Part shown: piece by piece, positions 12,770 through 64,000 of the stretch | How positions within the stretch are numbered: the stretch's first letter is position 1 | Layout: each line of letters starts with the position of its first letter | NCBI GenBank assembly: GCA_016719515.1 | Contig: JADJYZ010000037.1 | Location: 34,630 to 98,629 of the forward strand | DNA length: 64,000 nt | Reading direction: 5' to 3' | Source of the DNA: Deltaproteobacteria bacterium | GTDB taxonomy: Bacteria; Myxococcota_A; UBA796; CAJQPC01 | The notes under the pieces: generated by a model | Told to the model about the DNA's origin: nothing | Seen by the model: only the letters and a program-made list of their open reading frames with translations | Database searches by the model: none | Translations under genes and position numbers: made by a program

Positions 12770-13128
12770 GACCCCGTCACCACGACCGTCTCGGCGGCTC
12801 CTCCCGACCTCAAGCGCCAGGGTGAGCCGCGAGACGTTTTAGCCCCGCAGACGACCTCCGCGCAAGCCGCGCCCCGCTCGGGTATAGTGAGCTTGGCCTC
12901 TGCCCGGTTCGAGTACAGAGCGATCGTGGTTCCTCCACAAGTATGTCCCGGGACCCGCCCCTCTCCGTGGTGTGCACGCCTCCTCGTGAGGAAGCCTGAA
13001 GCGGGAATGCGGCTCCCCCCTCCTGAGTGGAGGAGGACCCCAACGCTCACACGGCCAGGGTGGAGGCCACTTTTTTGCGCGGACGCCGACACGGGAACCT
13101 CCCCGCCGCCGCCAGGGTCTCCTGCACC

Positions 13129-14210: not shown

Positions 14211-15326
14211 TCAGTCGGCGTTCTTGTAGAACGTCGGGATGTCGTAGTCGTCGTGCGCGATGTCGAAGCCGCTGGCCATCTCGCGGCCATGACCGCCGTG
14301 CATCCCGCGGCGACCGGCCACCTGAACGGCGACGCGGCGCTCGGCGGAGGGCACCACCTGCTGACGGGCCTCCTCGAAGCCCGTGGCGATGACGGTGACG
14401 CGGGCCTCGTCGCCCATGGTGTCGTCGATGACCCAACCCCAGATGAGGTTGACGTCCTCGTGGGCCTCTTCCTGAATCAGCGAGGAGGCCTCGTTGATCT
14501 CGTACATCGTGAGGTTCGAGTTGCCGGTGATGTTCATCAGGACGCTGGTGGCGCCGGAGATGGAGACATCGTCGAGCAGCGGCGAGGAGATCGCGCGCTG
14601 GGCGGCGTCCACCGTCTTGTGGTCACCCGTGGCCGTGCCGACGCCCATGAGCGCCACGCCCTTGTTGGCCATCGTCGTGCGCACGTCGGCGAAGTCGACG
14701 TTGACGATGCCCTCAAAGTTGATGAGGTCGGACACGCCCTTGATCGCCTGGAGCAGCACCTGGTCGGCGAGGTTGAACGCCTCCTTCATGGTGGTGCGGT
14801 CGCTGGCCATGGCGATGAGGCGCTGGTTGGGGATGGTGATGAGGGTGTCCACGACGCCCTTCAGCGCCTCGATGCCCTCTTCAGCCTGACGGCGGCGCTT
14901 CTTGCCCTCGAACCAGAACGGGCGGGTGACCACACCGACGGTGAGCGCGCCGTGCTCGCGGGCGAGCTGGGCCAGAACCGGCGCCGCGCCCGTGCCCGTG
15001 CCGCCGCCCATGCCGGCGGTCACGAAGACCATGTCCGCGCCGACGACGAGCTCCGCGAGGCGCTCCTTGTCCTCAAGGGCCGCCTCACGGCCGACCTCGG
15101 GGTTGGCGCCAGCGCCAAGGCCCTTGGTGAGCTGACCGCCGAGCTGAAACCGGCGGGGGGCCAGCGAGCGACGAAGATCCTGGGCGTCGGTGTTCACGGC
15201 GATGAACTCGACCCCGGTGAGACCACCCGCGATCATGGTGTTGACGGCGTTGTTGCCGCCGCCGCCAACGCCGATCACCTTGATCTTGGCGCCGACCAGT
15301 TCGTTCTCAATGATTTCGATGGGCAT
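14211..15326 (-). CDS. ftsZ: cell division GTPase FtsZ
   Basis: MPIEIIENE...[19 protein letters not shown], tubulin signature GGGTGTG; start reset to MPIEII, since upstream ORF-track residues are wrong-frame-like. Confidence 0.95.
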
Positions 15327-15489
15327 GGAGTTCTCCCGAGGTGCCCCTGCGCGTTGACGCGACAGGAGGACAGGCGAGGCTTGGAGGGATTGTCGTTCGC
15401 GGGGGACGAAGGAGACGAGGAGGAGTGCAGGAGGGGAGCAGCGAGGTGCTTGCAGAGGTCGTCGCGTCCGAGGATGAGCCGGGGATGGC

Positions 15490-16275
15490 TCAGGACGAGA
15501 GCGGGGTCGCCACAGCGAGGCCGTCGAGGTCGAGGTCGATGTGGTGAGGGACGGAGAGGTCAAGCCCGTTGCGAGCCATGACCCCGAGCCGCAGAAGCTG
15601 CTGCGCCGGGTCTCGGAAACCGAACCGGAGCAAGCCGCCGTTGCGGAGGAGGAGGGTGAAGCCTAAGGCCTCGTCAAAATGAAGCTCGGAGAGGTCGTCG
15701 GGCTGAATCACGCCGCTCTCCCCGACGAGGTCGAGGATGTGCAGCGCGTCGAGCACGATGCGCCGAGCCACCGGCCCATATTGTTCTACGAGGCGATCGT
15801 CCAGGCCCGTGAGCACCGGCCGATCGAGGCCGTCGCCGCGGGCCCGCAAGAACACCTCACCCGAGGGGTTCACGCGGTAAAGATGCCCGGCGTGGGAGAG
15901 CAGCAGCACGTCCTCGTGCTCCTGCACATGCACCCGAAGGCCGCCGGGGTACACCCGCTCGACCTCCACCTCGGCCACCCAGGGGTGACGCATCACCTGG
16001 CGGATGACGGTGTTGAGGTCGATGAGCAGGAGCGCGTCGCCCTCGTGAACATCGGCGAGGTGGCGCACGGCCACGACGCTGGCGTGGTGGTTGCCGACGA
16101 CCTCCACCGTCGCCACGCGGGCGAAGCGGTGGTAGTTGCAGACCCCATAAACGCCGAGGCCGCTCACCCCCGCCGTCACCACCGCCACGCCAAGGAGCCG
16201 CAGGACGCGGCCCACGATGGGGCGCTCCAGCAGGTCGGCGAGGCGGTCACGGAGGCGGGTCAGCATGGCTCTCAA
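15490..16275 (-). CDS. ftsQ: cell division protein FtsQ/DivIB (POTRA)
   Basis: Single TM helix followed by a POTRA domain and a beta-rich domain; position between ddl and ftsZ. Confidence 0.8.
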
Positions 16276-16435
16276 CAGGCAGGGGCAGCGGGGAGGGAAT
16301 CAGCGTTCGCGGTGCGGCGGCGGCTTCTGCGGGGACTGAGCTTCTTTTACCAGAGGCCGAGAAGTCTTGACAAGTAAATAGTTTGATTTTCCCTGCTCGG
16401 GGTCGTTTTTACCCCCAAACAAGGATCCTTGAGGC

Positions 16436-17389
16436 TCAAGCGCGCTCGTCTCGGCGCTCTAGGTGCAGGCGCGCGCCGAGGAGGATCGTCTCGACGAGCT
16501 CCTCAAAGGACATCCCCAGGGCCCCGGCCGCCATTGGGCTCAGGCTGGTCGCGGTCATGCCGGGGATGGTGTTGATCTCCAAGAAGTAGGGCTGGCCTGA
16601 GGCGTCGACGATGAAGTCGGCGCGGGCGACGCCGCCCAAGCCCAGGCGGGCGTAGGCCTCCTCCGCGGCGCGCTGGGCGCGCTCGGCCACGGCGGGGTCG
16701 ATGGGCGCGGGCACGATGTACTTCGTGAGGCCCTTGGTGTACTTCGCGGCGAAGTCGAAGAAGCCGGACTCGGGCACGATGGCGACCACAGGCAAGGCCC
16801 GGCCGTTGAGCACGGCCACGGTGATCTCCGCGCCGGAGACGAACTGCTCTAGGAGCACCTCCTCGCCGAGCTGGCCCAGGTCCAAGAGCGCCTTCTCAAG
16901 CTCGTGCTCCTCATGCACCATGACGATGCCCAAGGTAGAGCCGCCCTCGGGGAACTTGGCCACGACGGGCAAGGTGAGGTCCTCAGGGATGGCCTCACCC
17001 CGGCGCCAGACCGTGTCCGCGGGCATCACCACGCCCGAGCCCACCAGGGCACGTTTGGTGGCGATCTTGTCCATCGCCATCGCCGAGCCCCGCACGCCGG
17101 AGCCGGTGTAGGGGATACGCATAATCTCCAGGAGGCCCTGCACGCAGCCGTCCTCGCCGAACTGGCCATGCAGCGCGATCCAGGCCACCTGGGCGCCGAG
17201 CTCTCTGAGGCGCTCGGGCAGATCCGGGCCCACATCGACGGCGTGGGCGTCCCAGCCGCGGCTCTGCAGCGCGCCGAGCACGGCTTTGCCCGACTTTAAG
17301 GAGATCTCCCGCTCGCTGGACATGCCGCCCAGAAGCACCGCCACCCGCGCGTCGCGGGGAATCACCGTCTTTGTCGTGTCAGCCATCAC
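16436..17389 (-). CDS. ddl: D-alanine--D-alanine ligase
   Basis: VAVLLGGMSSEREISLKSG...; ATP-grasp motifs. Confidence 0.95.
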   Translation of the reverse strand: MMADTTKTVIPRDARVAVLLGGMSSEREISLKSGKAVLGALQSRGWDAHAVDVGPDLPERLRELGAQVAWIALHGQFGEDGCVQGLLEIMRIPYTGSGVRGSAMAMDKIATKRALVGSGVVMPADTVWRRGEAIPEDLTLPVVAKFPEGGSTLGIVMVHEEHELEKALLDLGQLGEEVLLEQFVSGAEITVAVLNGRALPVVAIVPESGFFDFAAKYTKGLTKYIVPAPIDPAVAERAQRAAEEAYARLGLGGVARADFIVDASGQPYFLEINTIPGMTATSLSPMAAGALGMSFEELVETILLGARLHLERRDERA

Positions 17390-18248
17390 TCCTCCGGCTA
17401 CGCCCTAAGGGCTTGAGCTCAGGGTTCAGGTCTACGCCGAGGTGGCTCTTGGCGCGGTCTTTGACCATTCCGATGAGCACCTTGAGGTCGTTCTCTTTGG
17501 CGCCGCCGAGGTTGATGAGGGTGTTTGGCTCATAGCCGCCGAGCCGCGCGCTGCGTAAGCGCACGCCGCGTAGGCCAAGCTCACTCATCATCTCCGCCGC
17601 GTTGTGGTTCTTTTTGGGGTCCAAAAACAGGCGCCCCGGCAGGCCCGGCCCACGTTTGGGGGCGCGACCGCCCTTGAGCGCCTGAGCGGGGTCAAGCTCA
17701 AGGCGGGCCCGCACGATGACGTGGTCGTCCTTGAGCTTGCCGGGCACCACCTCGGTGAGCCGACCGCCGCGCAGCACCCGCACACCCACCAAGGTCGGCG
17801 GCGGCTCGTCGCGGCGGAGCAGCTCGGCGATGGTGCCTGAGACGTGGTTGTAGAGCTCTAAGCCGATGAGGCCCTCACGCTTGGCGTAGCTGGCCAAGGC
17901 CGCCACGGGCGTCTGGGCGCCCACATCGAGGCGCAGGCCCTCGCGGGAGATGCCCTCTGCGCAGGCGCCGAGTCGCAGCCAGACGCCGTCCGCGCCGCCG
18001 TCGCCAACCCAGAGGTGCTGGCCGTCTACGGGCACCACACGCTCATTCGCCTCGCGGATGAGGCCCACCGCCTCCAGGAGCGCCTCCTCGGTCTCGACCA
18101 CCACCCACAACGCCGCCGGGCCGCCCACACGCCAGGTGCAGTGGCGGCTCATCGGCTCGTCCTCACGCACCATCAGCCCCGGCACGCTGCGCAGGCGCTC
18201 GGCGAGGGCGGCCGTGGGCAGGGCCGATGGAGGCGCGGACTCGCTCAA
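17379..18248 (-). CDS. murB: UDP-N-acetylenolpyruvoylglucosamine reductase MurB (short type)
   Basis: CTWRVGGPA N-terminal motif; C-terminal LFLDPKKNHNAAEMMSELGLRG...TLINLGGAKENDLKVLIGMV matches the MurB C-domain. Confidence 0.75.
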   Translation of the reverse strand: MSESAPPSALPTAALAERLRSVPGLMVREDEPMSRHCTWRVGGPAALWVVVETEEALLEAVGLIREANERVVPVDGQHLWVGDGGADGVWLRLGACAEGISREGLRLDVGAQTPVAALASYAKREGLIGLELYNHVSGTIAELLRRDEPPPTLVGVRVLRGGRLTEVVPGKLKDDHVIVRARLELDPAQALKGGRAPKRGPGLPGRLFLDPKKNHNAAEMMSELGLRGVRLRSARLGGYEPNTLINLGGAKENDLKVLIGMVKDRAKSHLGVDLNPELKPLGRSRRSDG

Positions 18249-19633
18249 CGAGGCTCCCCGCCGAGGCGCTGCACCAAGGGCGCGCAGATCGAGTTCACGT
18301 TGCCCGCGCCCAAGGTGATCACCAGGTCGTTGGGCTGGGCCATGTCTGCGAGCCGGGTGAGGGCCTCGTCCAGATCGTCCACCCGATCGACGCCGCGGTG
18401 GCCGTAGCGGCGTAGGCCTTCAGCGAGGCTCTGGTGGTCGATCCCGTCGATGGGCGCCTCGCCCGCCGCGGCGATGGGGCAGACGAGCACCCGATCGGCG
18501 CGGTTAAAGGCCCGGCAGAAGTCGGCGTGAAGGTCGCGAACCCGGGTGTAGCGGTGCGGCTGAAAGACCGCGATGATCCGACGCTTCTCGAAGCCCGCGC
18601 GGGCGGCGGCGAGGGTGGCGCGGATCTCCTCGGGGTGATGGCCATAGTCATCCACGACCATGACGCCGCCGGCCTCCCCCACGACAGTGAACCGGCGCTG
18701 CACCCCGGTGAAGCCGTCTAAGCCCGCGGCGACCTGCTCAAAGGGGATGTCGAGGCCCAAGGCCGTGGCCGCCGCCGCCAAGGCGTTCTGCACGTTGTGC
18801 TGGCCGGGCATCATCAGGCGCAGGCGACCCAGGCTCTCGGGGCCCCGATGTACGGCGAAGCTCGTCTCTAAGCCATTGCAGCGGATGTCGTCCCCGCGCA
18901 GGTCGGCCTGCCGGGTGAGGCCGTAGGTGACCACGCGGCGGCGCAGCTCGGGCAGGCTCTCTTGCACGATGGGGTGGTCCAGGCAGGCCACGGTGAAGCC
19001 GAAGAAGGGCACCTTGTTGGCGAAGTCTACAAACGCCCGGCGTAAGGTGGCGAAGTCGCCGTAGTGGTCGAGGTGCTCGGGGTCGATGTTGGTGATGACG
19101 GCCACGGTGGGCGCCAACAACAAGAAGCTGCCGTCGGACTCATCGGCTTCAGCGACGAGCAGCTCCCCCTGGCCGAGCTTGGCGTTTGAGCCCAAGGCGT
19201 CGAGCTTTCCGCCGATCACCACCGTGGGGTCGAGGCCCGCGGCGCCGAGGATCTGGGCGATCATCGAGGTCGTCGTCGTCTTGCCGTGGGTGCCGGCGAC
19301 GGCGACGCCGTACTTCATGCGCATCAGCTCGGCGAGGAGCTCGGCCCGGGGGATGACGGGGATGGCCTGGGCGCGCCCGGCGGAGAGCTCCGGGTTGTGG
19401 TCGGGCACCGCCGTAGAGCGCACGATGACGTCGGCGCCGACGATGTTCTCCGCGCGATGGCCGATGAACACCTGGGCGCCCAAGCTCCGCAGCCGGGCCA
19501 CGGTGCCGCTCTCTTTCATGTCCGAGCCGGACACCACAAAGCCCAAGGTGAGCAGCACTTCAGCGAGCCCGTTCATGCCGGATCCGCCGATGCCCACAAA
19601 ATGAACCTGACGCACCTTTCCGCGGAACATCAT
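18245..19633 (-). CDS. murC: UDP-N-acetylmuramate--L-alanine ligase
   Basis: VHFVGIGGSGMNGLAEVLLTLGF, GTHGKTTTTSM. Confidence 0.95.
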   Translation of the reverse strand: MMFRGKVRQVHFVGIGGSGMNGLAEVLLTLGFVVSGSDMKESGTVARLRSLGAQVFIGHRAENIVGADVIVRSTAVPDHNPELSAGRAQAIPVIPRAELLAELMRMKYGVAVAGTHGKTTTTSMIAQILGAAGLDPTVVIGGKLDALGSNAKLGQGELLVAEADESDGSFLLLAPTVAVITNIDPEHLDHYGDFATLRRAFVDFANKVPFFGFTVACLDHPIVQESLPELRRRVVTYGLTRQADLRGDDIRCNGLETSFAVHRGPESLGRLRLMMPGQHNVQNALAAAATALGLDIPFEQVAAGLDGFTGVQRRFTVVGEAGGVMVVDDYGHHPEEIRATLAAARAGFEKRRIIAVFQPHRYTRVRDLHADFCRAFNRADRVLVCPIAAAGEAPIDGIDHQSLAEGLRRYGHRGVDRVDDLDEALTRLADMAQPNDLVITLGAGNVNSICAPLVQRLGGEPR

Positions 19634-20784
19634 CGGGCCAGAACCCCCTCCGCCGTGGCGCTCGGGCGGTAGATGGTGGGCGCCCGGGCTCCGGCGGCGC
19701 TGTTCGCCGAGACGTTGAGCAAGAGCCCCACGGCGAAGAGCTGGGCGACGATGGCGGAGGCGCCATAGGACATAAACGGCAGCACGAGGCCCTTGGGCGG
19801 CACGATGCCCATGACGACGCCGAGGTTGAAGAAGGCCTGCAGGCCGATGGCCGCGGTCAATGACGTCGCGAGCAGGGCCCCGAAGAGGTCTTCAGCCTGC
19901 CGGGCGACGTGCATGCCGCGCCAGATGAGCAGGCCGTAGAGCGTCAACAGCGCGAGCACGCCGATGAGGCCCAGCTCTTCACCCAACACCGAGCCGATGA
20001 AGTCGGTCCAGGGCTCGGGCAAGAACAGGTGTTTGGCTTGGCTCTCGCCGAGGCCACGCCCGGTGAGCCCGCCGGAGTGAAACGCGATCATCGACTGGAT
20101 GACCTGGTAGCCCGAGCCCGCCGCGTCCGCCCAAGGGTCCATGAACGAGCGCAGGCGCTTGAGCCGATAGGGCTCGGCCACGGCCACCAAGGCGCCGACG
20201 GTGACCCCGAGGCCAAAGAGCGCGTAGATAAACCGTGTGCGCAGCCCAGCGACGACCAGGGTGAGGAAGGCCATGCCGCCGATGATCACCGTGGTGCCGA
20301 AGTCGGGCTCCATGACGATGAGCAGCATCAAGGGCACGGGGATGGCCAAGGCCGGCAAGAGCACGTTCTTCACGTCGTCCAGGCGGCCGCCCTTCTCGTC
20401 GATGAAGTGCGCCATACACAAGACGCAGACCAGCTTCGCCAGCTCTGACGGCTGCAGGTTCACGCTGCCCATGCCGATCCAGCGCGACGCGCCGTTGACC
20501 CGGTGGCTGAGCCCCGGCACAAACACCAAGATGAGCCCGATGATGACCGCCGCGTAGGCCGCCCAGGCGTAGCGCCGCAGCCACTCATACGGCGTGAACG
20601 CGATGCCGACGCCGCCGATGATGCCGACGATGATCGCCGCGAGCTGGCGTTTGACGTAGTACCAGGGGTCGTCCAGGCGGTCGGCGGCCACGGGCCCCGA
20701 GGCCGACTGCACCATCACCAGCCCCAGAATGAGCAGCACGACGACGAGGCCCATGAGGGGCAGATCAAAACGGCGGGCCTTCAT
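19630..20784 (-). CDS. ftsW: lipid II flippase/peptidoglycan polymerase FtsW (SEDS family)
   Basis: 10-TM SEDS protein; in the canonical dcw position, overlapping the murC start. Confidence 0.9.
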   Translation of the reverse strand: MKARRFDLPLMGLVVVLLILGLVMVQSASGPVAADRLDDPWYYVKRQLAAIIVGIIGGVGIAFTPYEWLRRYAWAAYAAVIIGLILVFVPGLSHRVNGASRWIGMGSVNLQPSELAKLVCVLCMAHFIDEKGGRLDDVKNVLLPALAIPVPLMLLIVMEPDFGTTVIIGGMAFLTLVVAGLRTRFIYALFGLGVTVGALVAVAEPYRLKRLRSFMDPWADAAGSGYQVIQSMIAFHSGGLTGRGLGESQAKHLFLPEPWTDFIGSVLGEELGLIGVLALLTLYGLLIWRGMHVARQAEDLFGALLATSLTAAIGLQAFFNLGVVMGIVPPKGLVLPFMSYGASAIVAQLFAVGLLLNVSANSAAGARAPTIYRPSATAEGVLAR

Positions 20785-22104
20785 GTCGTGGCCTCCTGGG
20801 CGAGCCGCGCGAAGACGGCCCCACGGTGCTCGAAGTTGTTGAACTCATCAAACGAGGCGCAGGCCGGGGTGAGCAGCACCGCCTGGCCGGGCCGCGCGAG
20901 GCGACGGGCCAAGGCCACGGCGTCGGCGAGGCCAGAGACGACGTGGTGGGGATGCGCCCCCAACCCTTGGGAGATCTCCTGGGCGCTGCCGCCGCAGACG
21001 ATGACCTCCACCGCCGCGCGTGAGAGCGCCGGGCGGAGCAGGCCGTAGTCGGCGCCCTCTTTGCCTTGGCCGCCGAGGATCACCACCGCCGGGCGATCGA
21101 CGCTCTCTAAGCCCACCAAGGCGGCGTCGACGTTCGTGGCTTTGGAGTCGTTGATCCACAACACCCCGGCCTGCTCGGCCACGGGCTGCATGCGGTGGGG
21201 CAAGGCCGTGAGCGCCGAGAGGTCCAGCGCCGCCAAGGATGCGCCCAAGGCCCGGGCCAAAGCGGCGGCCACGGCGGCGTTCCAGCGGTTGATCCGGCCC
21301 ATGACCTTGAGGCCCGAGAGGTCTAGGCGCTCCCCTTCGATGAGGGCGTAGGAGCCATCGTCGCCGAGCAGCACGCCGGGCTCAGCATCCAGCCAGCGCC
21401 GCTGCCCCGGTTTGCCCTCACAGGCGGCCTTCAGGAGAATGTCTCCATTGGGGACATAGGCCAGAGCCGCTGGGCGTCATGTGGTCAAAGAGCTTGGCTT
21501 TGGCCGCGGCGTAGCCCTCCATCGTGCCGTGCCGGGCGAGGTGGTCGGGGGTGAGGTTGAGGATCACCCCGGCGTCGGGCGCGAAGTCTCCGGCGAGCTC
21601 AAGCTGGTACGAGGAGACCTCGACGACGAGGCTGTCAAAGTCCCCGCCCACGGCCTCACACAAGGGCGTGCCCAGGTTTCCGCCGACGAAGGGCCGCCGC
21701 CCGACCCCACGCAGGAGCTGCCCGGTGAAGTGGGTGACCGTGGATTTGCCGTTGGTGCCGGTGATCGCCGCCGTGGGCAGGCGCGGCAGGTGGCGCCAGG
21801 CGAAGCCCAGCTCACCGAGCACCTCCACCCCAGCGGCCAACGCCCGGCGCACCGGCGGCGCCGCGGCGGGCACCCCCGGGGAGACGACGACGAGGTCCAC
21901 GTCGGTGAGATCGGCGTCCTCATGGCGGCCAAAGACGTTGTGCGCGCCCTCGACGCCCTCGGAGTCCGCCTTGAGATCCGTGAGCGTCACCCGCTCTGCG
22001 CCCAAGCGCAACGCCAGACGCGCGGCGGCCCGGCCCGAGAGCCCAGCCCCGAGCACGGTGACCCGACGTGGCATGACGTGGGTTGTGGCGCCGCCCATGC
22101 TCAC
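20781..22104 (-). CDS. murD: UDP-N-acetylmuramoylalanine--D-glutamate ligase MurD, split by a +1 frame disruption near 21474-21483
   Basis: N-terminal half (ORF 21418..22104: VTVLGAGLSGRAAA...ITGTNGKST...AAKAKLFDHM) and C-terminal half (upstream extension of ORF 20781..21374: AYVPNGDILL...WINDSKATNV...) align contiguously to MurD. Confidence 0.85.
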
Positions 22105-54812: not shown

Positions 54813-55410
54813 ATGCACCACGTCACGTCGCTCCTTCGCGCTGGGCTTCTGCTCGGCGCCGCCCTCCCCTCCTCCGCCCTCGCCTGCAGCTTCATCGAGT
54901 ACGACGAGCACCTCATCGACGACACGATCGAAGACGAGGTCGCCCCCAGCCTGCCCAGCCTCGATGAGCTCGACATCAACCGCGGCGTCGGCCCCACCCG
55001 GGCGGGGTTCGGCTCTCAGATGAGCACGTCCTGCGACGATCTCGGCTGGATCACCCTGCGCCTGAGCGCTGAAGACGACCTCAGCCCGCCGGAGAACCTC
55101 GGCTTCGTCTTCGCCTTAGACACCGGCTCTTTGCCGTTCACCCTGCCGTCCGAGCCCGCGCGGCCCTTCGACGGGTCGATCACCTTCGTGTGGATCGACG
55201 GCGCCACAGACGACCAAGAGCCCATCGAGGCCACGGTCACGGTGAACACCATGGACGAGGCGGGAAACCTCAGCGCCGAGTCCTTGCTGCTCACGATCAG
55301 CGATGAGGGCAGCGAAGAGGGCGTCAAGGGCTGCTCCACGGGATCCGGCGCGCCGGGCCTGGGCCTTGGGCTGTTGGGCCTTGTGGCCTGGCCGCGCCGC
55401 CGCGGGCTGA
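54813..55410 (+). CDS. secreted acidic protein with a MYXO-CTERM tail, paralogue A; stop apparently lost, with read-through into paralogue B
   Basis: Signal peptide MHHVTSLLRAGLLLGAALPSSALA|C; C-terminal KGCSTGSGAPGLGLGLLGLVAWPRRRG; own TATAGT box 30 nt upstream. Confidence 0.6.
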
Positions 55411-55460: not shown

Positions 55461-56068
55461 ATGCATCCCGTCAAGTCGCTCCTTCGCGCTGGGCTCTTGC
55501 TCGGCGCGGCCCTGCCCTCCTGCGCGCTCGCCTGCAGCTTCGCCTCCAATGAACAGCACCTCATCGACGACTCGCTCGACGACGTGGTTCCGCCGAGCCT
55601 CCCGAGCTTGGGTGAGCTGTCCATTCAGCGTTGGCACGGCCCCGTCGAGGTCAGCCCCGGCGTAGCGATGAACGACTCCTGCGGCGATCTCGGCTGGGTG
55701 ACGCTGTGGCTCAGCGCCGAAGACGACCGCTCCGCGCCGGAGAACCTCGGCTTCGTCTTCACCTTGGAGAGCGGTGAAGCGCCCTTCACATGGCCGACGG
55801 AGCCGATACGGCCCGCTGAAGACGGCATCCTGTTCATCTGGGTCGACGAGGCGACCGACGAACAGGAGCCCATCGAGGCCACGCTCTCGGTGAACACAGT
55901 AGACGAGGCGGGCAACGTGAGCGACGAGGCCTTGCTGCTCACGATCAGCGACGAGGGCAGCGAGGCGGAGGTCAAGGGCTGCCCACCGCCTCAGGCGCCC
56001 CGGGCCTCGGGCTTCTGAGCCTCGGCCTCGTCGGGCTCACCTGGCGTCGCGCCCGCCGCCAGGCCTGA
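55461..56068 (+). CDS. secreted acidic protein with a MYXO-CTERM tail, paralogue B; 1-nt deletion near 55980-55988 relative to A
   Basis: About 70% identical to A; MYXO-CTERM tail (GAPGLGLLSLGLVGLTWRRARRQA) encoded in the -1 frame after KGC; own TATAAT box upstream. Confidence 0.6.
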
Positions 56069-56095
56069 GCGGCGGCGGCGAGCGTCCGGCGAGGG

Positions 56096-56818
56096 TCAGC
56101 GCTTCTTCTTGCCCTTCGCGGCGGCGGCGGCGGCCTCTTCAGCGGCCTTCGCCGCGGCGGCGGCCTCTTCAGCGGCCTTCGCGGCGGCGGCGGCCTCCTC
56201 AGCGGCCTTCGCGGCGGCGGCGGCCTCTTCAGCGGCCTTCGCCGCGGCGGCGGCGGCCTCCTCAGACGCCTTCACGGCCTCTTGGGCCTCGGTGATCACC
56301 TTGAGCTTGTTGAGGTTGGCCTCAAAGTCGGCGCCGACGACGGTCTCGATCTTCTTGGCGAAGAGCTTGGAGATGCCCTTGAGCTGGCCGTCATCGGACC
56401 AGGTCACCTGCATCCCGCCGTTCGTGGGGCTGAACGTGATGCTGCCCTTGTTGGCGTCGCTGCCGGGCTTCATCAGCCAGATGTCGTACTTGACGCCGCC
56501 GGTGGGGTTGACCTCGGTGAGCGTGAGCTTGCCCCAGCCCATCTCTTTGCCGTCCCACTCCATCGTGTGGCCGACCTGACCGGGCTCGCCGGAGTAGGTC
56601 CAGACACACTCGGGGTCGTACTCGCTGTTCCAGACCGTCCAGTTGTTCCAGTTGTGGAGGTCGGCGACCTGGGCGATGAGGATCTCGGGCCGGGCCTTCA
56701 CCTGCACCGAGCGGTCGACGTGCCAGCTCTTTGAGGCGGCGATGGCGGGGGCGGCGCTGAAGAGGGCCGGGGCGGCGAAGGCCAAGCCAGCGAGCAAGCT
56801 GAAGGCGCGGAGGTTCAT
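56096..56818 (-). CDS. secreted SRPBCC (Bet v1-like) domain protein with a C-terminal (KAAEEAAAAA)n repeat tail
   Basis: Signal peptide AIAAS; SRPBCC-like core (WHVDRSVQVKARPEIL...); 33-nt tandem repeat encoding the A/E helix; KKKR terminus. Confidence 0.6.
   Translation of the reverse strand: MNLRAFSLLAGLAFAAPALFSAAPAIAASKSWHVDRSVQVKARPEILIAQVADLHNWNNWTVWNSEYDPECVWTYSGEPGQVGHTMEWDGKEMGWGKLTLTEVNPTGGVKYDIWLMKPGSDANKGSITFSPTNGGMQVTWSDDGQLKGISKLFAKKIETVVGADFEANLNKLKVITEAQEAVKASEEAAAAAAKAAEEAAAAAKAAEEAAAAAKAAEEAAAAAKAAEEAAAAAAKGKKKR
56109..56270. repeat. 33-nt tandem repeat, about 4.5 copies (GCCTTCGCGGCGGCGGCGGCCTCTTCAGCGGCC-like)
   Basis: Direct reading of near-identical 33-nt units; encodes the KAAEEAAAAA(A) repeats on the minus strand. 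Confidence 0.8.
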
Positions 56819-56907
56819 GGTTCTCTCTCTGTCGGGGGTGTTGGGTTAGAAGACCGGCAGGTTATCGGCTCCTCCCCTCGATCAAGCGCCCAAGCAAAAG
56901 AGGCAGA

Positions 56908-58049
56908 ATGAACGCTCGAATTGACACGCTGCTCGTTCACGCGGGGGCCTTGGACCCGAGCCCTGAAGGCGCCGTCGTCACGCCGATCTTCCGCTCGGCG
57001 AACTACGAGGCCGGTGAAGAAGGCGCCGCCGATGAGGTGCGCTATGTGCGCTACAGCAACACGCCGAACCATCGGGTGCTCGGCGCGCGCCTCGCCGCGG
57101 CGGAGGGGGGCGAGGCGGGGCTGGTCACCGCGAGCGGCATGGCGGCGATCTCGGCGACGCTCTTAAGCGCGCTCTCCGCCGGGGATCACCTGCTCTGCCA
57201 GGCCGGCGTCTATGGCGGCACCACCTCGCTCATGCTGCGCCACCTCCCGCGCTGGGGCGTCGAGGTCAGCTTTGTAGACCTCGACGCGCCGGAGACCTGG
57301 GCCGCCGCGCTGCGGCCGACGACGCGGCTGTTTTATGTGGAGTCGATCTCCAACCCGCTCCTGCGGGTGGGCGCTTTGGATGAGGTTGTCAGTTTCTGCC
57401 AAACCCGCGGCCTCACCTCAGTCATCGACAACACCTTCTTGAGCCCGGCCTTGTTCCGCCCCCTGCCCTTCGGCTTTGACGTGGTGCTGCACTCGGCGAC
57501 GAAGCTGCTCAACGGGCACTCCGACATCGCCGCCGGGGCCATCGTCTCCGACGCCGCCCGGGTGGAGGCCGCCCGGCGCACCCTGAACCACCTCGGCGGC
57601 AGCTTGGATCCCGACGCCTGCGCGCTCTTGGAGCGTGGCCTCAAGACCTTGGGCCTACGCGCCCACCGCCAGTCCAGCTCCGCCCTCACCCTCGCCCACC
57701 GCCTGCGGGTTCACCCCAAGGTGCGCCGGGTCTTCTCCCCGGCCTGCCCGACGACGCGGGCTTCGCGCGGGCCGCGGCCTGGTTTCAAGGCGTTGGTCCT
57801 TGCCTCTCTTTGGAGGTCTCCGACCTGCCCACGGCGATGGCTTTGGTCAAGGGTGTGCGCATCTTCACCCACGCCGCGAGCTTGGGCGGCGTCGAGAGCC
57901 TCATCGTGCGCCCGGCCCGCAGCACCCACGCCCACTTCTCTGCGGAGGAGCGTAGCGCCTCGGGCATCACCGACACCTTGGTGCGCCTGAGCGTCGGGGT
58001 GGAGGACGTCGAGGACCTCTGGGACGATCTGGCGGCGGCCTTGGGCTGA
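56908..58049 (+). CDS. Cys/Met-metabolism PLP-dependent enzyme (cystathionine gamma-synthase/gamma-lyase or methionine gamma-lyase family); frame disruption near 57735-57745
   Basis: MNARIDTLLVHAG..., PLP-lysine motif HSATKLLNGHSD; the C-terminus (SLGGVESLIVRPA...THAHF...LVRLSVGVEDVEDL) lies in ORF 57810..58049. Confidence 0.8.
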
Positions 58050-58166
58050 GGGGAGCGGCCCGCGGAGGGGTGGGTAAGGTCGGCGTAGGGTGCGGCGGAG
58101 AGGTGACCACGGCTATTCGGTCGGCGCTCCTGACCCGAAGGTGAGGAGCTCAAGGACTGAACCACG

Positions 58167-61100
58167 ATGCCCTCCTCTGCCTTCCCGATCGGGATCATCG
58201 GCGCCGCCTGCCGTCTGCCTGGCGGCGTTCGCCATCCCCTGGACCTCGCCGCCTTCCTCCGCTCCGGCGGTGACGGCATCATCGACGTGCCCCCCGACCG
58301 CTGGGACGTGGAGCTGCACTACGACGCCGACGACCGGCGTGGCCGGGCCTATGTGCGGCGCGGCGGCTTCTTGCACGACGACCCAAAACGGTTCGATCCG
58401 GCGCCTTTTGGGCTCTCCCCCCGGGACGCCGACGCCATGGACCCCCAGCAGCGGCTCATGCTGGAGACGAGCTGGGAGGCCATCGAGGACGCGGATCTCC
58501 CAATTGAGGCCCTGCGCGGCACGGCGACGGGCGTGTACATCGGCGGCTTCATGGGCGACGTGAACGCCCTGGTCGCCCACCCCGGCGGCCGCCACAAGGT
58601 GAGCCAACACACGGCGACGGGCTCGACGATGACGCTGTTGTCGAACCGCATCTCCTATGTGTTTGACCTGCGCGGGCCGAGCATGACCGTCGACACGGCC
58701 TGCTCCTCGTCGATGGTGGCCGCCCACCTCGCCTGCCAGGCGATCCACGAGGGCGCCTGTGAGCGTGCGCTCATCGGCGGGGTCACGATGATGCTCTCGC
58801 CACATTCGCCGATGATGATGTCCAAGGGGCGATTCTTGGCGAAGGACGGTCACTCCAAGAGCTTTGAGGCCGACGCCGACGGCTATGGCCGGGCCGAGGG
58901 CGCGGTGATGTTGCTCGTGGAGCCGCTTCATGTCGCCTTGGCCGCCGGGCGGAGGGTGCTCGCCGTGATCCGCGGCACGGGCATCAACCAGGATGGCCGC
59001 ACCGACGGCATCGCCTTGCCCAGCGGCGAGGCCCAGGCGCGGCTCTCTCGGGAGGTCTGCGCGCGGGCCGGGGTGAACCCCGTCGAGGTCGGGCTCATCG
59101 AGGCCCACGGCACGGGCACGCGGGTGGGGGATCCCATCGAGACCCGCGCGCTGGGTGAGGTCTACGGCGTCGGGCGACCGGCGGACAAGCCGCTGTACAT
59201 CGGCTCGGTGAAGACCAACATCGGCCACACCGAGGCCGCCGCCGGGCTCGCGGGGATGCTCAAGGCGGCGCTGTCGTTGGGCGCGGACGAGATTCTGCCC
59301 CAGCGCCCCCTGCGCGCGGCGAACCCCGACATCCCCTTTGACGCCCTGCGCCTCAAGGTGGTCGAGGCGCCGACGCCTTGGCCCGCAGGCCGTCGCCTCG
59401 CGGCGATCAGCTCCTTCGGGTATGGCGGCACCAACGCCATCGCGCTGTTGGAGGCCGCGCCGACCGCCCCGACGCGGGCTGAGCTTGAGGCCCCGGCCGA
59501 TGCGCTGCGCCTGCTCGCCGTCTCCGCCGACAGCACGAGCGGCCTTCGCGCCCGGGCGGGGCAGCTCTTGGAGGTGTTGGCGGGGCCTGAGGCCGACGTG
59601 GATCGCCTCGCGGCCACCCTCGCGCAGCACCGCTCCTTACGCCCCGAGCGTGGGGTGCTCACCGTGAGTGGCCTCGACGACGCCCGCGCGGCGCTCACCG
59701 CCCTGCGCGACGGCGCGCCGGATGAGCGGGTTCACCTGGGCCGCGCCTCCACCCGCCGCCCCCTCGTGTGGGTGTTCACCGGCATGGGGCCCCAGTGGCC
59801 GGGCATGGGCCAGCAGCTCCTCGACCAGGGCGGGGCCTTCGCCGAGACCGTCACCCGCGCGGCGGAGACCTTCGACCGGCTCTCCGGGCGCTCGATCTTG
59901 CACGAGTGGCGCCAGAGCGCGACGACGGGCCAGATGGCGCGGAACGACCTCGCCCAGCCCACGAACCTGCTCTTGCAGCTCGGGCTCATCGCCCAGCTCC
60001 ACGCCCGGGGCCTGCGCCCAGACGCGATCTTGGGGCACAGCGTCGGTGAGGTCGCGGCGGCCTACGCGGCGGGCGCGCTCAGCTTGGAGCAGGCCGTCGA
60101 GGTCGCGTTTCACCGCTCGTCGCTGCAGCAAGAGGTCGCCGGTCGGGGCGGGATGCTCGCGGCGGCGATGGACCTCGATGAGCTGGAGCGTTTTGTGCCT
60201 GAAGGCGCGGACGTGGCCGTGGCGGCGATCAACGCGCCGGGCTCTATCGCCTTGGCGGGCAGCGCCGCGGACCTGGACCGGGTCGAGCGCGCCTTGACCG
60301 AGGCCGGGCGCTTCGCCAAACGGATGACCGTCGAGGTGGCCTACCACAGCCCCACATGGACACGCTGCAGGACGGCTTCTTCGCCCGCCTGGGCCACCTC
60401 ACGCCCGCCGCGCCGACCTTGCCCTTGTACTCCCACGCTCACCGGGGCCCGGGTGGAGGGCGCGGTGCACGACGCGGCGTACTGGTGGGGCAACGCCTGG
60501 CAGCCCGTTCGCCTGCGGGACGCCGTCCGGGCGGCCTTGGGCGACGGCATGGAGCTGTTCTTGGAGATCGGCCCGCACCCCGTGCTCGGCGCGGCGATCA
60601 AGGCGAACGCCGCCGCCGCGGGCCGCTCGGCGCTGAGCTTGTTCACCCTCAAGCGCCAGACCGACGAGCCCCGGGCCCTCGCCCGCGCCGTCGCCCAGGC
60701 CCTCGCCGCCGGGGCCGAGGTGAATCGGGCGCAGCTCGCCCCGGCCCGGGCCCCGCTGCGCCTGCCGACCTACCCTTTCCAGCGCGCCCACCACTGGATG
60801 GAGTCCCGGGCCTCCCAAGACGAGCGCCTCGGCGCGCCCGGCGCGCACCCGATGCTGCGCCGCCCCTCGGCCCGCCTCACGCCGAGCTGGCGCTGCGAGC
60901 TGGCGGGGGCGCCCTTGGCCTGACTTCAGACCACGTCGTCGCCGGGCAGACCGTGCTCCCGGCGGCGGCCCAGCTTGAGATGATGCTCGCCGCCGCGGCC
61001 ACCCAAGGCGCGGCGACGGTGCGAGAGGTGCGCCTCTCCCGGGCCTTGGTGATCGACCACGACGGGATCAACACCTTGACCTTGGACCTCGGCGAGGGCG

Positions 61101-64000
61101 GCGAGCTGGTGCTGACCGGCGTCACCGACGACGAGGCCCCCGTTGAGCTCACCCGGGCGATCCTCGGCGGCGCCGCCGGGACCGCGCCGCGCCAAGACCT
61201 CCCGTCGCTCACCGCGCAGATGCCCCTGAGCGCGCCGACCGGGCTCTACGAGCGCCTCACCACGATGGGCCTCAGTACGGCCCGGCCTTCCAGACCGTGC
61301 GCCGCATCGGCCGCGCGGGCCGCAGGCTGCTCGTCGAGCTGGTCCCCCAGGTTGAGCTGGGCCGCTTCTTCTTGCACCCGACGCTCCTCGACGGTGCCTT
61401 CCACGCCATGCTCTCGCTCTTGCCCGATGAGGTGACCCAGCCGGTGATCCCGACCTCCCTGGCGAGCCTGCGCCTGTTTCGGCCCGCGCGCGGCGCCCTC
61501 TACGCCTTGGTGGACAGCGCACCGATGGCCCCCGACGGGTCGATCCGCGCAGATCTGCGGCTCTACGACATCACCGGCGAGGCCGTCGCCGCCCTGCGGG
61601 GGCTTGAGTGCCGCCCGATCCGCCCGGCCTTGGAGGGCCTCACCGCTGAAGAGAAGGACTGGGCCTATGTCGAGACGACGACGCCTGTGCCCGCCCGGGA
61701 GGCGCCCCCGGCGGCCTGGGCGGCCTGGGTAGACGACGCCCCGCTTCGGGCGAGGCTCGCCGAGGGCGCCCTGGCCCGGGGCGAGTCGTTGACCCTCTTG
61801 GACGAGACCGGCCCCATCACCGCCTCGCCGAGCCGGATCGTCCTGCAGGTGGATCCCGGCGAGCAGGTGGACGGCTCCGACGGGCTCCTCGGCCTCTTGG
61901 ACCGCGTGCGCTGCGCCCAGCGGCGCCTCCCCGGCGTGGCGCTGCGGCTCATCACCCTGGGGGCGATCCCCTCGCCCGCCTCCGCCGGAGCGGACCTCGG
62001 CGCCGCGGCCCAGCTCGGCCTCGCCCGCACCCTCCAGAACGAGCACCCCGAGCTTGACCTGCGCCTCCTCGATCTCCCCCAGGACGCCCAGCCCGAGGGC
62101 TCGACGCTGTTGGAGATCCTTCACCGCGACGACGAAGAGGAGCTGATCTGGCGCCCCGAGGGCCTCAGCGCCCGCCGCGTCAGCCGCCTCAACCTCGATC
62201 AGATCGCCCACCCTGGCCGCGTCACGCCCACGGCGCTCCTCGACGCGCCCCCGGCGGAGCTGGTCGTGGGCACCCCCGGCGACCTCTCGACCCTGGCGTT
62301 TCGCCCCGTCCCCTCGCCCAGCGCGGGCCCCGGGGAGCTGCTCGTGCGGATGGAGCGGGTCGCGCTCAACCTCAAGGACGTGGCGAAGGCCCTCGGCCGC
62401 CTGCACACCGAGCACAGCGACGGCACCTACACCGGGGCGGCCCTGGGCTTGGAGGGCGTCGGCGTGATCGTGGCCGCAGGGGACGGCATCGACCCCGCCC
62501 GGGTCGGCGAGCGGGTGCGCCTGATGACCGGCGGCGCCTTGGCGACGGTGGTGCGGGTGCGGGTGCATGAGGTCTTGCCCCTGGGCGACCGCGAGGCCAC
62601 GGAGGCGGCCTGCGACTTTGTGCACATGACCGCCTGGCACAGCCTGCTTCATGTCGCCCAGCTTCAGCCCGGTGAGCGCGTGCTCATTCACCAGGCCGGC
62701 GGCGGCGTGGGCCTCGCGGCGACCCAGCTCGCCTTGGGCCTCGGCGCGGAGGTGGTCGCCTTGGCGGGCACCGAGGCCAAACAGGCGGCGCTTCGGGCCA
62801 TCGGCGCGCGCTGGGTGTTCAACAGCCGGGATCCGCCTGGGCCGAGGCCGTGCGTGAGGCCCTCGGGGAGCCCTGCCTCGACGTGGTGCTCGCGTCGAGC
62901 GACCTGCCGGTTATGCGGGAGGCGCTGGGGCTCCTGCGCCCCCTCGGTCGTTATGTCGAGCTGGGCAAGTCGGAGCTCGTCGCCGACAAACGCCTCGCCT
63001 TGGGCGTGTTCAACCGCTCGATCACCTTCGCCGCCGTAGACCTCGACCGCCTCGGCGCCGCCAAGCCCGAGACCATCGTGCTCCTCAACGCCGCCGTCGC
63101 CGAGGCCCTCCAGAGCGGGCGCATCGCCCCGCTGCCCGTCGAGGTCTTCACCGGAGACCGCGTGGGCGAGGCCATGCGCCGCCTCGGGAGCGGCGAGGTC
63201 TTGGGCAAGGTCGTCGTAGACCTCACCCAAGGTGCGCTGCCCGTGCTCGATGTGCCGACCCCTCCGGCCCCGGTGCGGGCGGATCGGGGCTACCTCATCA
63301 CCGGCGGCCTCGGCGGCTTTGGCCTACGCAGCGCCCGCTGGCTCGTCGATCAAGGCGCGCGACACGTCGTGCTCGCCAGCCGCCGAGGCGTGGCCGAAGA
63401 TCCCGCCGCGGTGGAGTCTCTGCGCGCCCGAGGCGCGGTGATCGTCGAGGTGGCCTTAGACGTCGTGGACTTGGGCGCGGTGAGCGCGCTGGTCGCCCGC
63501 TTCGGCGTGGAGTGGCCCCCCTTGGCCGGGGTGATTCACGCGGCGATGGTGCTGCACGACGCCCCGGCGCTCACCCTCGACCGCCCGAGCCTGCGCCATG
63601 TGCTCCGCCCCAAGGTGGACGGCGCGTGGAACCTGCACGTCGCCACCGAGGGCCTGCCCTTGGAGCACTTCATCGTCTACAGCTCGATCTCCGGCTGGCT
63701 GGGCAACCCCAACCAAGGCGCCTACGCGGCGGCGAACGCGGCGATGGAGGCCCTGGTGTACACCCGGCGCGCGGCGGGCCTGCCGGGCAGCGTCGTCGCC
63801 TGGGGCGCCATCGGCTCCGTAGGCGTCGTGGCGAGGGCCCAGGGCACCGAGCGGCACCTCAACAGCATCGGGCTCTCGCCGATCTCCCCCGGACGGGCGC
63901 TGCACCTCATGGGTTACGCCCAGCGCCTCGGCGTCGTGAGCCTCTGCGCGGCGAGCGCCCGCTGGGATCGTTGGCGGGAGGCCGTCCCCGGCGTCGGCTG
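58167..64000 (+). CDS. type I polyketide synthase, one fully reducing module (KS-AT-DH-ER-KR), partial at the window end, with at least 6 apparent frame disruptions
   Basis: KS (DTACSSS, EAHGTGT, NIGH), AT (GHSVGE, AYHSPHM), DH (HxxxGxxxxP: SDHVVAGQTVLPAAA; YGPAFQ), ER (LIHQAGGGVGLAA), KR (ITGGLGGFG; YAAANAAMEAL). Confidence 0.85.

Follow-up and report, generated by a model that had tools for sequence, protein, structure and literature searches.

A predicted compact cassette with a mono-modular, fully reducing polyketide synthase of the mycocerosic acid synthase architecture in an uncultured member of the Myxococcota

Mycocerosic acid synthase (MAS) and the MAS-like mycobacterial polyketide synthases (PKSs) are single polypeptides of about 2100 residues. 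Their domains run from a ketosynthase (KS) through an acyltransferase (AT), a dehydratase (DH), a pseudo-ketoreductase linker (psiKR), an enoylreductase (ER), and a ketoreductase (KR) to an acyl carrier protein (ACP), with no loading module or thioesterase (TE). MAS uses methylmalonyl-CoA. Other described mono-modular enzymes, the PKS or fatty acid synthase (FAS) families SwfA, SupA, and WcbR/RkpA, have one KS-AT-DH-ER-KR-ACP module with a malonyl-type xA(F/Y)H motif in the AT and are encoded in small operons; a saturated acyl product is expected of them (PMC3908369). Here I describe a 64,000-nucleotide stretch of DNA (the window) from a Deltaproteobacteria bacterium assigned to Myxococcota_A (assembly GCA_016719515.1, contig JADJYZ010000037.1, positions 34,630 to 98,629 of the forward strand), which ends inside a type I PKS gene preceded by the gene of a pyridoxal phosphate (PLP)-dependent enzyme. 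On balance, the locus is probably a compact cassette in which a stand-alone, fully reducing PKS of the MAS architecture is coupled to a methyltransferase (MT), the PLP enzyme gene being incidental and the insertions and deletions (indels) that break the reading frames being assembly errors. The features of the locus in the window are as follows.

56908..58049 (+): gene of a Cys/Met-metabolism PLP-dependent enzyme, 380 aa once repaired (PF01053 Cys_Met_Meta_PP, E 2e-80)
58050..58166 (+): spacer of 117 nt between the PLP enzyme gene and the PKS gene
58167..64000 (+): type I PKS gene by Pfam, cut by the window end after about 1946 of about 2069 residues
58185..59306 (+): KS domain; DPQQR (58440), DTACSSS (58692), HGTGT (59106), NIGH (59217)
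59766..60719 (+): AT domain; GHSVG (60033-60047), VAYH (60336-60347); codons 60350-60432 out of frame
60846..61623 (+): DH domain; HVVAGQTVLP (60932), YGPAF (61276), DGAFH (61390); 1-nt deletions at 60922 and 61273
62326..63218 (+): ER domain; NADPH motif HQAGGGVG (62689); 1-nt deletion at 62833
63291..63812 (+): KR domain; TGGLGGFG (63300), LHD at the LDD position (63549-63563), Ser in YSSISG (63678), Tyr in GAYAAAN (63717)

Domain architecture and closest known systems

The Pfam matches from the ATG at 58167 are, in order, ketoacyl-synt, Ketoacyl-synt_C, KAsynt_C_assoc, Acyl_transf_1, PKS_DH_N, PS-DH, ADH_N, ADH_zinc_N, ADH_zinc_N_2, and KR. This corresponds to KS-AT-DH-(psiKR linker)-ER-KR, with the ACP predicted just past the window; about 94% of the synthase lies inside it. 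The KS begins at residue 7, so that only 6 residues precede it and a loading or docking domain is missing. The domain order and the lack of a loading domain had been recognized by the first-pass annotation, made from the window alone, and its ER, KR, and DH calls are all supported by Pfam profiles. It had also seen correctly that the PKS continues past the window, as the open reading frame (ORF) runs off the end at 64000. The motifs were read from a repaired translation aligned to two relatives, L001 and L085. All four KS motifs are present, and the KS is predicted to be an active condensing enzyme. The KR has all of its catalytic K/S/Y/N residues, and the Asp at the LDD position is that of B-type KRs. 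No embedded C-methyltransferase domain was found in the PKS. Thus, after repair of five indels, the gene has the ordered KS, AT, DH, ER, and KR with intact catalytic motifs of a fully reducing type I PKS.

The AT motifs GHSVG, VAYH, and RNDLAQP stand where methylmalonyl-type ATs have GHSQG, YASH, and RVDVVQ. VAYH aligns column for column with the YASH of DEBS-type and related ATs. The first-pass annotation had placed GHSVG correctly, but its "YASH-type" region is in fact VAYH. By the classical motif rules, a bulky aromatic residue at the third motif position together with GHS[V/I/L]G predicts malonyl-CoA. In PMC3908369, the rule of Reeves 2001 that xAFH means malonyl is applied to the IAFH motif of SwfA. 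It is therefore predicted, with moderate confidence, that the AT loads malonyl-CoA and not methylmalonyl-CoA; a methylmalonyl-specific AT was rejected on account of the three motifs.

Among solved structures, MAS (9d2y, 2124 aa) matches the whole PKS best, in two stretches and at E 1e-269; DEBS modules, animal FAS, and LovB rank lower. In NCBIfam, the model of the phthioceranic acid synthase Pks2 comes second, and the scores are far under the equivalog cut-offs (1003 against 2400 bits). When the C-terminal end is taken from the relatives, the synthase stands alone as the MAS-like PKSs do, without a TE, a loading module, or docking domains. It differs from MAS in its malonyl-type AT, which lacks the MAS-like motifs YASH, GHSQG, and RVDVVQ, in having no FadD-type loader or PapA-type acyltransferase nearby, and in its Myxococcota host.

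The Swf families resemble the synthase in module content and AT type. However, the Swf KS motifs are DPQ[I/V]R and HATGT, and the partner genes are swfB (reductase-sulfotransferase) and swfC (radical SAM) (PMC3908369). The KS in the window keeps DPQQR and HGTGT, neither swfB, swfC, nor capsule genes are nearby, and the partner is a small class I methyltransferase. Membership in the Swf/WcbR families was rejected on account of the KS motifs and the lack of a reductase-sulfotransferase or radical SAM gene nearby. A polyunsaturated fatty acid (PUFA) synthase of the Pfa type, with tandem ACPs, a KS and chain length factor pair, and a FabA-type DH, was likewise rejected; the relatives have one ACP, the DH is of PKS type, and the score of the PfaA model, 285 bits, falls well short of its cut-off of 1010. 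The first-pass annotation had stated that an isolated FAS- or PUFA-type synthase would refute its secondary-metabolite cluster. The relatives come close to an isolated FAS-type synthase, but not to a PUFA-type one.

Single-module proteins from metagenome-assembled genomes (MAGs) of Kofleriaceae and other Myxococcota (P0012, P0013, P0048, and others) have the same domain order with 41-45% identity over 97-100% of the query. They differ in being 2290-2420 aa long, with about 300 aa without a Pfam match after the ACP. In the one context examined (L082), there is no PLP enzyme or MT neighbor. In P0013, P0048, and P0059, the stretch after the ACP that has no Pfam family is about 300-350 residues and may be an undescribed release domain. 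The synthase in the window appears to be an uncharacterized orphan of a known class, the mono-modular MAS-like PKSs.

Interrupted reading frames

The interruptions of the reading frame were missed by the first-pass annotation. The domains and catalytic motifs are there, but the frame is broken by indels in both the PLP enzyme gene and the PKS gene. L001, a contig of a Myxococcota MAG found in a scan of the genome collection, has 96.6% nucleotide identity to window 55711-63963 and ends 37 nt short of the window end. Relative to L001, the coding sequence of the window has six 1-nt indels, namely deletions at 57737, 60350, 60922, 61273, and 62833 and an insertion at 60432. All six make a run of C or G (2-5 bases) longer or shorter. 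At 57737, a C5 run of the PLP enzyme gene appears as C4; the gene changes frame after codon 276, and the PF01053 match is divided between frame 3 (profile positions 1-283) and frame 2 (278-380). In the PKS gene, the frame shifts at 60922, 61273, and 62833. The KS-AT region (58167-60920) is in the first frame, the N-terminus of the DH in the second, the C-terminus of the DH and the N-terminus of the ER in the third, and the C-terminus of the ER and the KR in the first again. The compensating deletion and insertion at 60350/60432 scramble 27 AT codons directly after VAYH. As assembled, the PKS module would fall into at least four ORFs for a gene caller.

In L001, the PLP enzyme gene lies inside a continuous open frame of 400 codons, and the PKS gene is a single open frame of 1935 codons that leaves the contig end. 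L176, a JGI metagenome assembly 98.7% identical to L001, has the L001 state at all six indel sites. Both sister assemblies have 96-97% nucleotide identity to the window. After repair, comparison of the window with L001 gives dN/dS ratios of 0.11 (PKS gene) and 0.10 (PLP enzyme gene), with similarly low values in each segment between frameshifts. The changes on the window branch, polarized by the more distant L085, are 25 synonymous to 11 nonsynonymous for the PKS gene and 10 to 4 for the PLP enzyme gene, resembling those on the L001 branch. Since the indels are absent from both sister assemblies and the window lineage is under purifying selection, the six indels are most likely assembly errors and not gene decay.

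The alternative is that the two genes are a pseudogene pair, truly and recently inactivated in this strain by biological frameshifts. Several observations point that way and weigh against assembly errors. Six indels crowd into about 5 kb of the 56.9-64 kb region, against two clear ones in the other 57 kb of the window, where long genes are intact (IF2, 1105 aa; a penicillin-binding protein, 709 aa; a vault-like frame, 870 aa). Such an uneven density is not predicted by a uniform error process. In addition, the L176 PKS gene carries an independent 1-nt insertion in the ER (L176 13373), and real decay in some strains is possible. An IS481-family transposase adjoins a kinase gene truncated to 324 aa at L176 1265-3453. 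On the other hand, the ratio of 35 synonymous to 15 nonsynonymous changes on the window branch over both genes leaves room for only about seven neutral substitutions against six indels, so that this is not a natural mutation spectrum. All of the indels are changes in C/G run length. Furthermore, the N- and C-terminal halves of murD (about 21450, - strand) are in different frames, apparently due to a 1-nt frameshift, and murD is an essential gene. A Ser/Thr kinase gene (about 49740, - strand) is also split over two frames in the window, apparently by another 1-nt frameshift, while it encodes 985 aa in L085. Both cases bear on how good the assembly is as a whole. Decay of the pair thus seems unlikely.

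Extent of the locus and the predicted chemistry

The sequence past 64000 was taken not from the contig itself but from relatives with about 88% identical PKSs and conserved upstream synteny. Exact matches to three ORFs of the window were looked for and not found, probably owing to their frameshifts or to their absence from the collection. One relative protein (P0002), 89% identical to the L001 PKS, is a KS-AT-DH-ER-KR-ACP polypeptide of 2069 aa, and only the ACP is added after the KR. A PLP protein identical (100%) to that relative's is present on ten contigs, one of which is 637 kb. The PKS of the relatives stops 123 residues past the window end. In P0002 and L085 (PKSs 88-89% identical), the ACP (PF00550, GLDSL) is followed by a short tail and a stop codon. 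In L085-L089 and in L096, which a separate scan of metagenomes supplied, a Ser/Thr kinase gene is followed in turn by four genes of unknown function, an SRPBCC gene on the opposite strand, the PLP enzyme gene, the PKS gene, and an MT gene. Beyond the MT gene lie a convergent 250-aa gene of unknown function and a deoxyhypusine-synthase-like gene, then FdhD and DUF5690. Upstream, the window shows the same succession of genes.

No second module, TE, non-ribosomal peptide synthetase (NRPS), acyl-AMP ligase, acyltransferase, phosphopantetheinyl transferase (PPTase), or set of tailoring genes was found in these six syntenic relatives. Genes for PKS, NRPS, TE, AMP-ligase, and PPTase are also missing from the annotated surroundings of L085, which cover about 10 kb ahead of the PLP enzyme gene and 3.7 kb behind the PKS gene. 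None of these was found among the window genes at 44-56 kb either. Thus, the ACP, TE, and further modules sought by the first-pass annotation reduce, in the relatives, to a single ACP. Its polyketide locus is indeed a type I PKS locus, fully reducing, but the window does not show the edge of a larger one, as the relatives end after one ACP and a coupled MT. A multi-modular assembly line was rejected, as the relatives have no further modules, subunits, or TE, and the genes on both sides are unrelated. The locus is rather predicted to be a compact mono-modular cassette of three genes or fewer, which is almost wholly in view.

The MT is a class I S-adenosylmethionine-dependent methyltransferase of 219 aa that is translationally coupled to the PKS; its start codon and the stop codon of the PKS share a 4-nt overlap. 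The overlap is kept in every assembly reaching that point (L081, L083, L085-L089, and L096). Homologs with 46-55% identity are widespread, mostly in unrelated contexts. A few of them accompany ketosynthases: one follows a modular PKS-TE in Streptomyces netropsis (L053), three are separated by 46-47 nt from a preceding type III PKS-like gene (L137, L147, and L151), and one follows a stand-alone KS (L166). The contexts of a 62% MT homolog (L084) and of the 45% PKS homolog L082 were uninformative. Clustering of the neighbors in 72 metagenome loci revealed no dominant partner family, and there is no close MT relative in the PDB (best E 1e-4). It is moderately supported that the MT acts on a polyketide or fatty-acyl product.

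A likely sequence of events can be drawn from these genes. Since there is a single fully reducing module with no loading domain, the KS would be primed directly by an acyl thioester. The AT would supply the malonyl-CoA extender, and each cycle would be fully reduced. Through most likely iterative use of the module, a saturated acyl chain without branches would grow on the enzyme's own ACP. As there is no TE, release may occur via a trans-acting partner or by hydrolysis. The coupled MT would methylate either an ACP-bound intermediate or the finished product, which might thereby become a methyl ester or ether. The product may be a specialized metabolite or an envelope lipid.

It is also conceivable, but improbable, that the synthase does not iterate but lengthens a pre-formed fatty acyl starter by a single, fully reduced two-carbon unit, as an envelope-lipid elongase of the kind proposed for WcbR/RkpA-type enzymes. 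One module without a loading domain suits either mode, and the same ambiguity was stated for SwfA (PMC3908369). However, the neighborhood lacks capsule and polysaccharide genes as well as genes for an acyl-AMP ligase or an acyltransferase, and the closest solved enzyme, MAS, is described as having an iterative cycle (PMC12370991).

Several points weigh against the reading of the locus as a compact PKS-MT cassette. The ACP, the MT, and the downstream genes come from the relatives and not from the contig itself. VAYH is a non-canonical motif, hence the moderate grade of the malonyl call. Of the 72 MT-family loci whose context could be read, about 60 lack a neighboring ketosynthase, which leaves the substrate class of the MT weakly supported. 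Finally, the PLP enzyme gene and the PKS gene may be co-transcribed, since their spacer and same-strand order are conserved.

The PLP enzyme and the neighboring genes

As the first-pass annotation had noted, a gene of the cystathionine gamma-synthase (CGS)/methionine gamma-lyase (MGL) family lies directly upstream of the PKS gene; the two are 117 nt apart. Judged by its full-length match and the presence of the Schiff-base lysine (SATKLL, 57493-57510), the product is a member of PF01053. It reaches no equivalog cut-off within the family; the best NCBIfam score among the MGL, CGS, cystathionine gamma-lyase (CGL), cystathionine beta-lyase (CBL), and sulfhydrylase models is about 313 bits, below the cut-offs of 500-660, and every equivalog model scores at roughly half its cut-off. 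In the PDB, structures of CGL, MGL, CGS, and CBL all match it about equally well, at E 1e-80 to 1e-65. The enzyme has YGGT where MGLs carry YGCT (compare Cys116 of the Pseudomonas putida MGL).

The first-pass annotation had considered it possible that the enzyme performs a sulfur- or amino-acid-derived tailoring step. In its fuller form, this explanation takes the PKS for the opening module of a multi-modular polyketide cluster of larger size. The same-strand order of the two genes with a spacer of 117-122 nt is conserved in five assemblies, and the mean column identity of the 117-nt spacer is 86% across L001, L085, and the window. A promoter and terminator scan of the spacers showed no terminator-like site at 58050-58166 and was otherwise uninformative. 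CGL-family enzymes do occur in PKS clusters, and CalE6 is among the PDB matches of the PLP enzyme. However, the larger cluster is largely refuted by the relatives, where a single ACP closes the synthase and neither another module nor a TE follows. The next-nearest PLP enzyme homologs, with 56-60% identity (L093-L095, from Myxococcota and others), lie in contexts without a PKS, and no PLP enzyme homolog was found near 79 more distant reducing-PKS loci (L002-L080). Co-occurrence with a PKS was therefore not found beyond the close relatives. Since the homologs at 56-60% identity adjoin no PKS, a tailoring role is unsupported; it was deduced from an adjacency documented only inside a narrow clade, which the synteny of close assemblies would suffice to explain. 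A literature search on CGS-type enzymes in PKS clusters returned nothing applicable. A larger cluster with PLP-dependent tailoring is thus quite unlikely, and most likely the PLP enzyme is a sulfur-amino-acid enzyme that adjoins the PKS by chance in this clade. At a similarly low probability, the PLP enzyme, the TE-less PKS, and the MT might form one pathway, in which the PLP enzyme would off-load or modify the ACP-bound chain by gamma- or beta-replacement (forming a C-S or C-C bond) or supply a thiol, and the MT would cap the product.

The gene on the other side of the PLP enzyme gene is the following.

56096..56818 (-): gene of an SRPBCC (Polyketide_cyc2) protein of 240 aa, divergent from the PLP enzyme gene (Pfam PF10604, E 7e-16)

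The protein has a hydrophobic N-terminus and an Ala/Glu/Lys-rich tail. The gene is kept beside the PLP enzyme gene in L001, L081, L085, and L176, and no SRPBCC match was found in L093-L095. It is regarded as a neighbor, and it is doubtful that it belongs to the cassette. Both the window copy and the L085 copy (L085 9187-9909) have a signal-like N-terminus. The L085 copy has a long AAEEAAAAAK-type repeat tail ending in KKKK, an appendage unusual for the family.

The window has a G+C content of about 70% and carries chromosomal housekeeping genes such as infB, nusA, rimP, the dcw cell-wall cluster, recA, and a 6S RNA gene. The 6S (SsrS) RNA at 12894-13070 (+ strand; 64.6 bits against a gathering score of 46.4) is the sole Rfam match in the window, and no tRNA genes were found in it. 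In the dcw cluster (14214-20844, - strand), ftsQ lies directly against ftsZ and ftsW directly against murC; judging from Pfam matches and spacing, there is no room left for ftsA and murG at their usual places. An open frame of 870 codons at 45505-48114 (+ strand) has major vault protein domains (MVP_shoulder, Vault_3, and Vault repeat), and its position is conserved in L085. Vault-protein homologs are uncommon among bacteria. A lipoprotein-like gene of about 200 aa with no known family is duplicated in tandem at 54813-55355 and 55539-55982 (+ strand), while L085, L176, and other relatives have only one copy.

The annotation of the locus is corrected by these results to a small orphan cassette with a predicted malonyl-CoA AT, which is not the start of a large assembly line, and its broken frames call for repair in annotation and not for pseudogene calls. 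If the PLP enzyme, the PKS, and the MT did form one pathway, a previously undescribed class of amino-lipids or thio-lipids would exist in uncultured Myxococcota. The products of mono-modular fully reducing PKS/FAS enzymes outside mycobacteria are mostly unknown, and the conserved PKS-MT pair of uncultured Myxococcota is a small and tractable target for heterologous expression.

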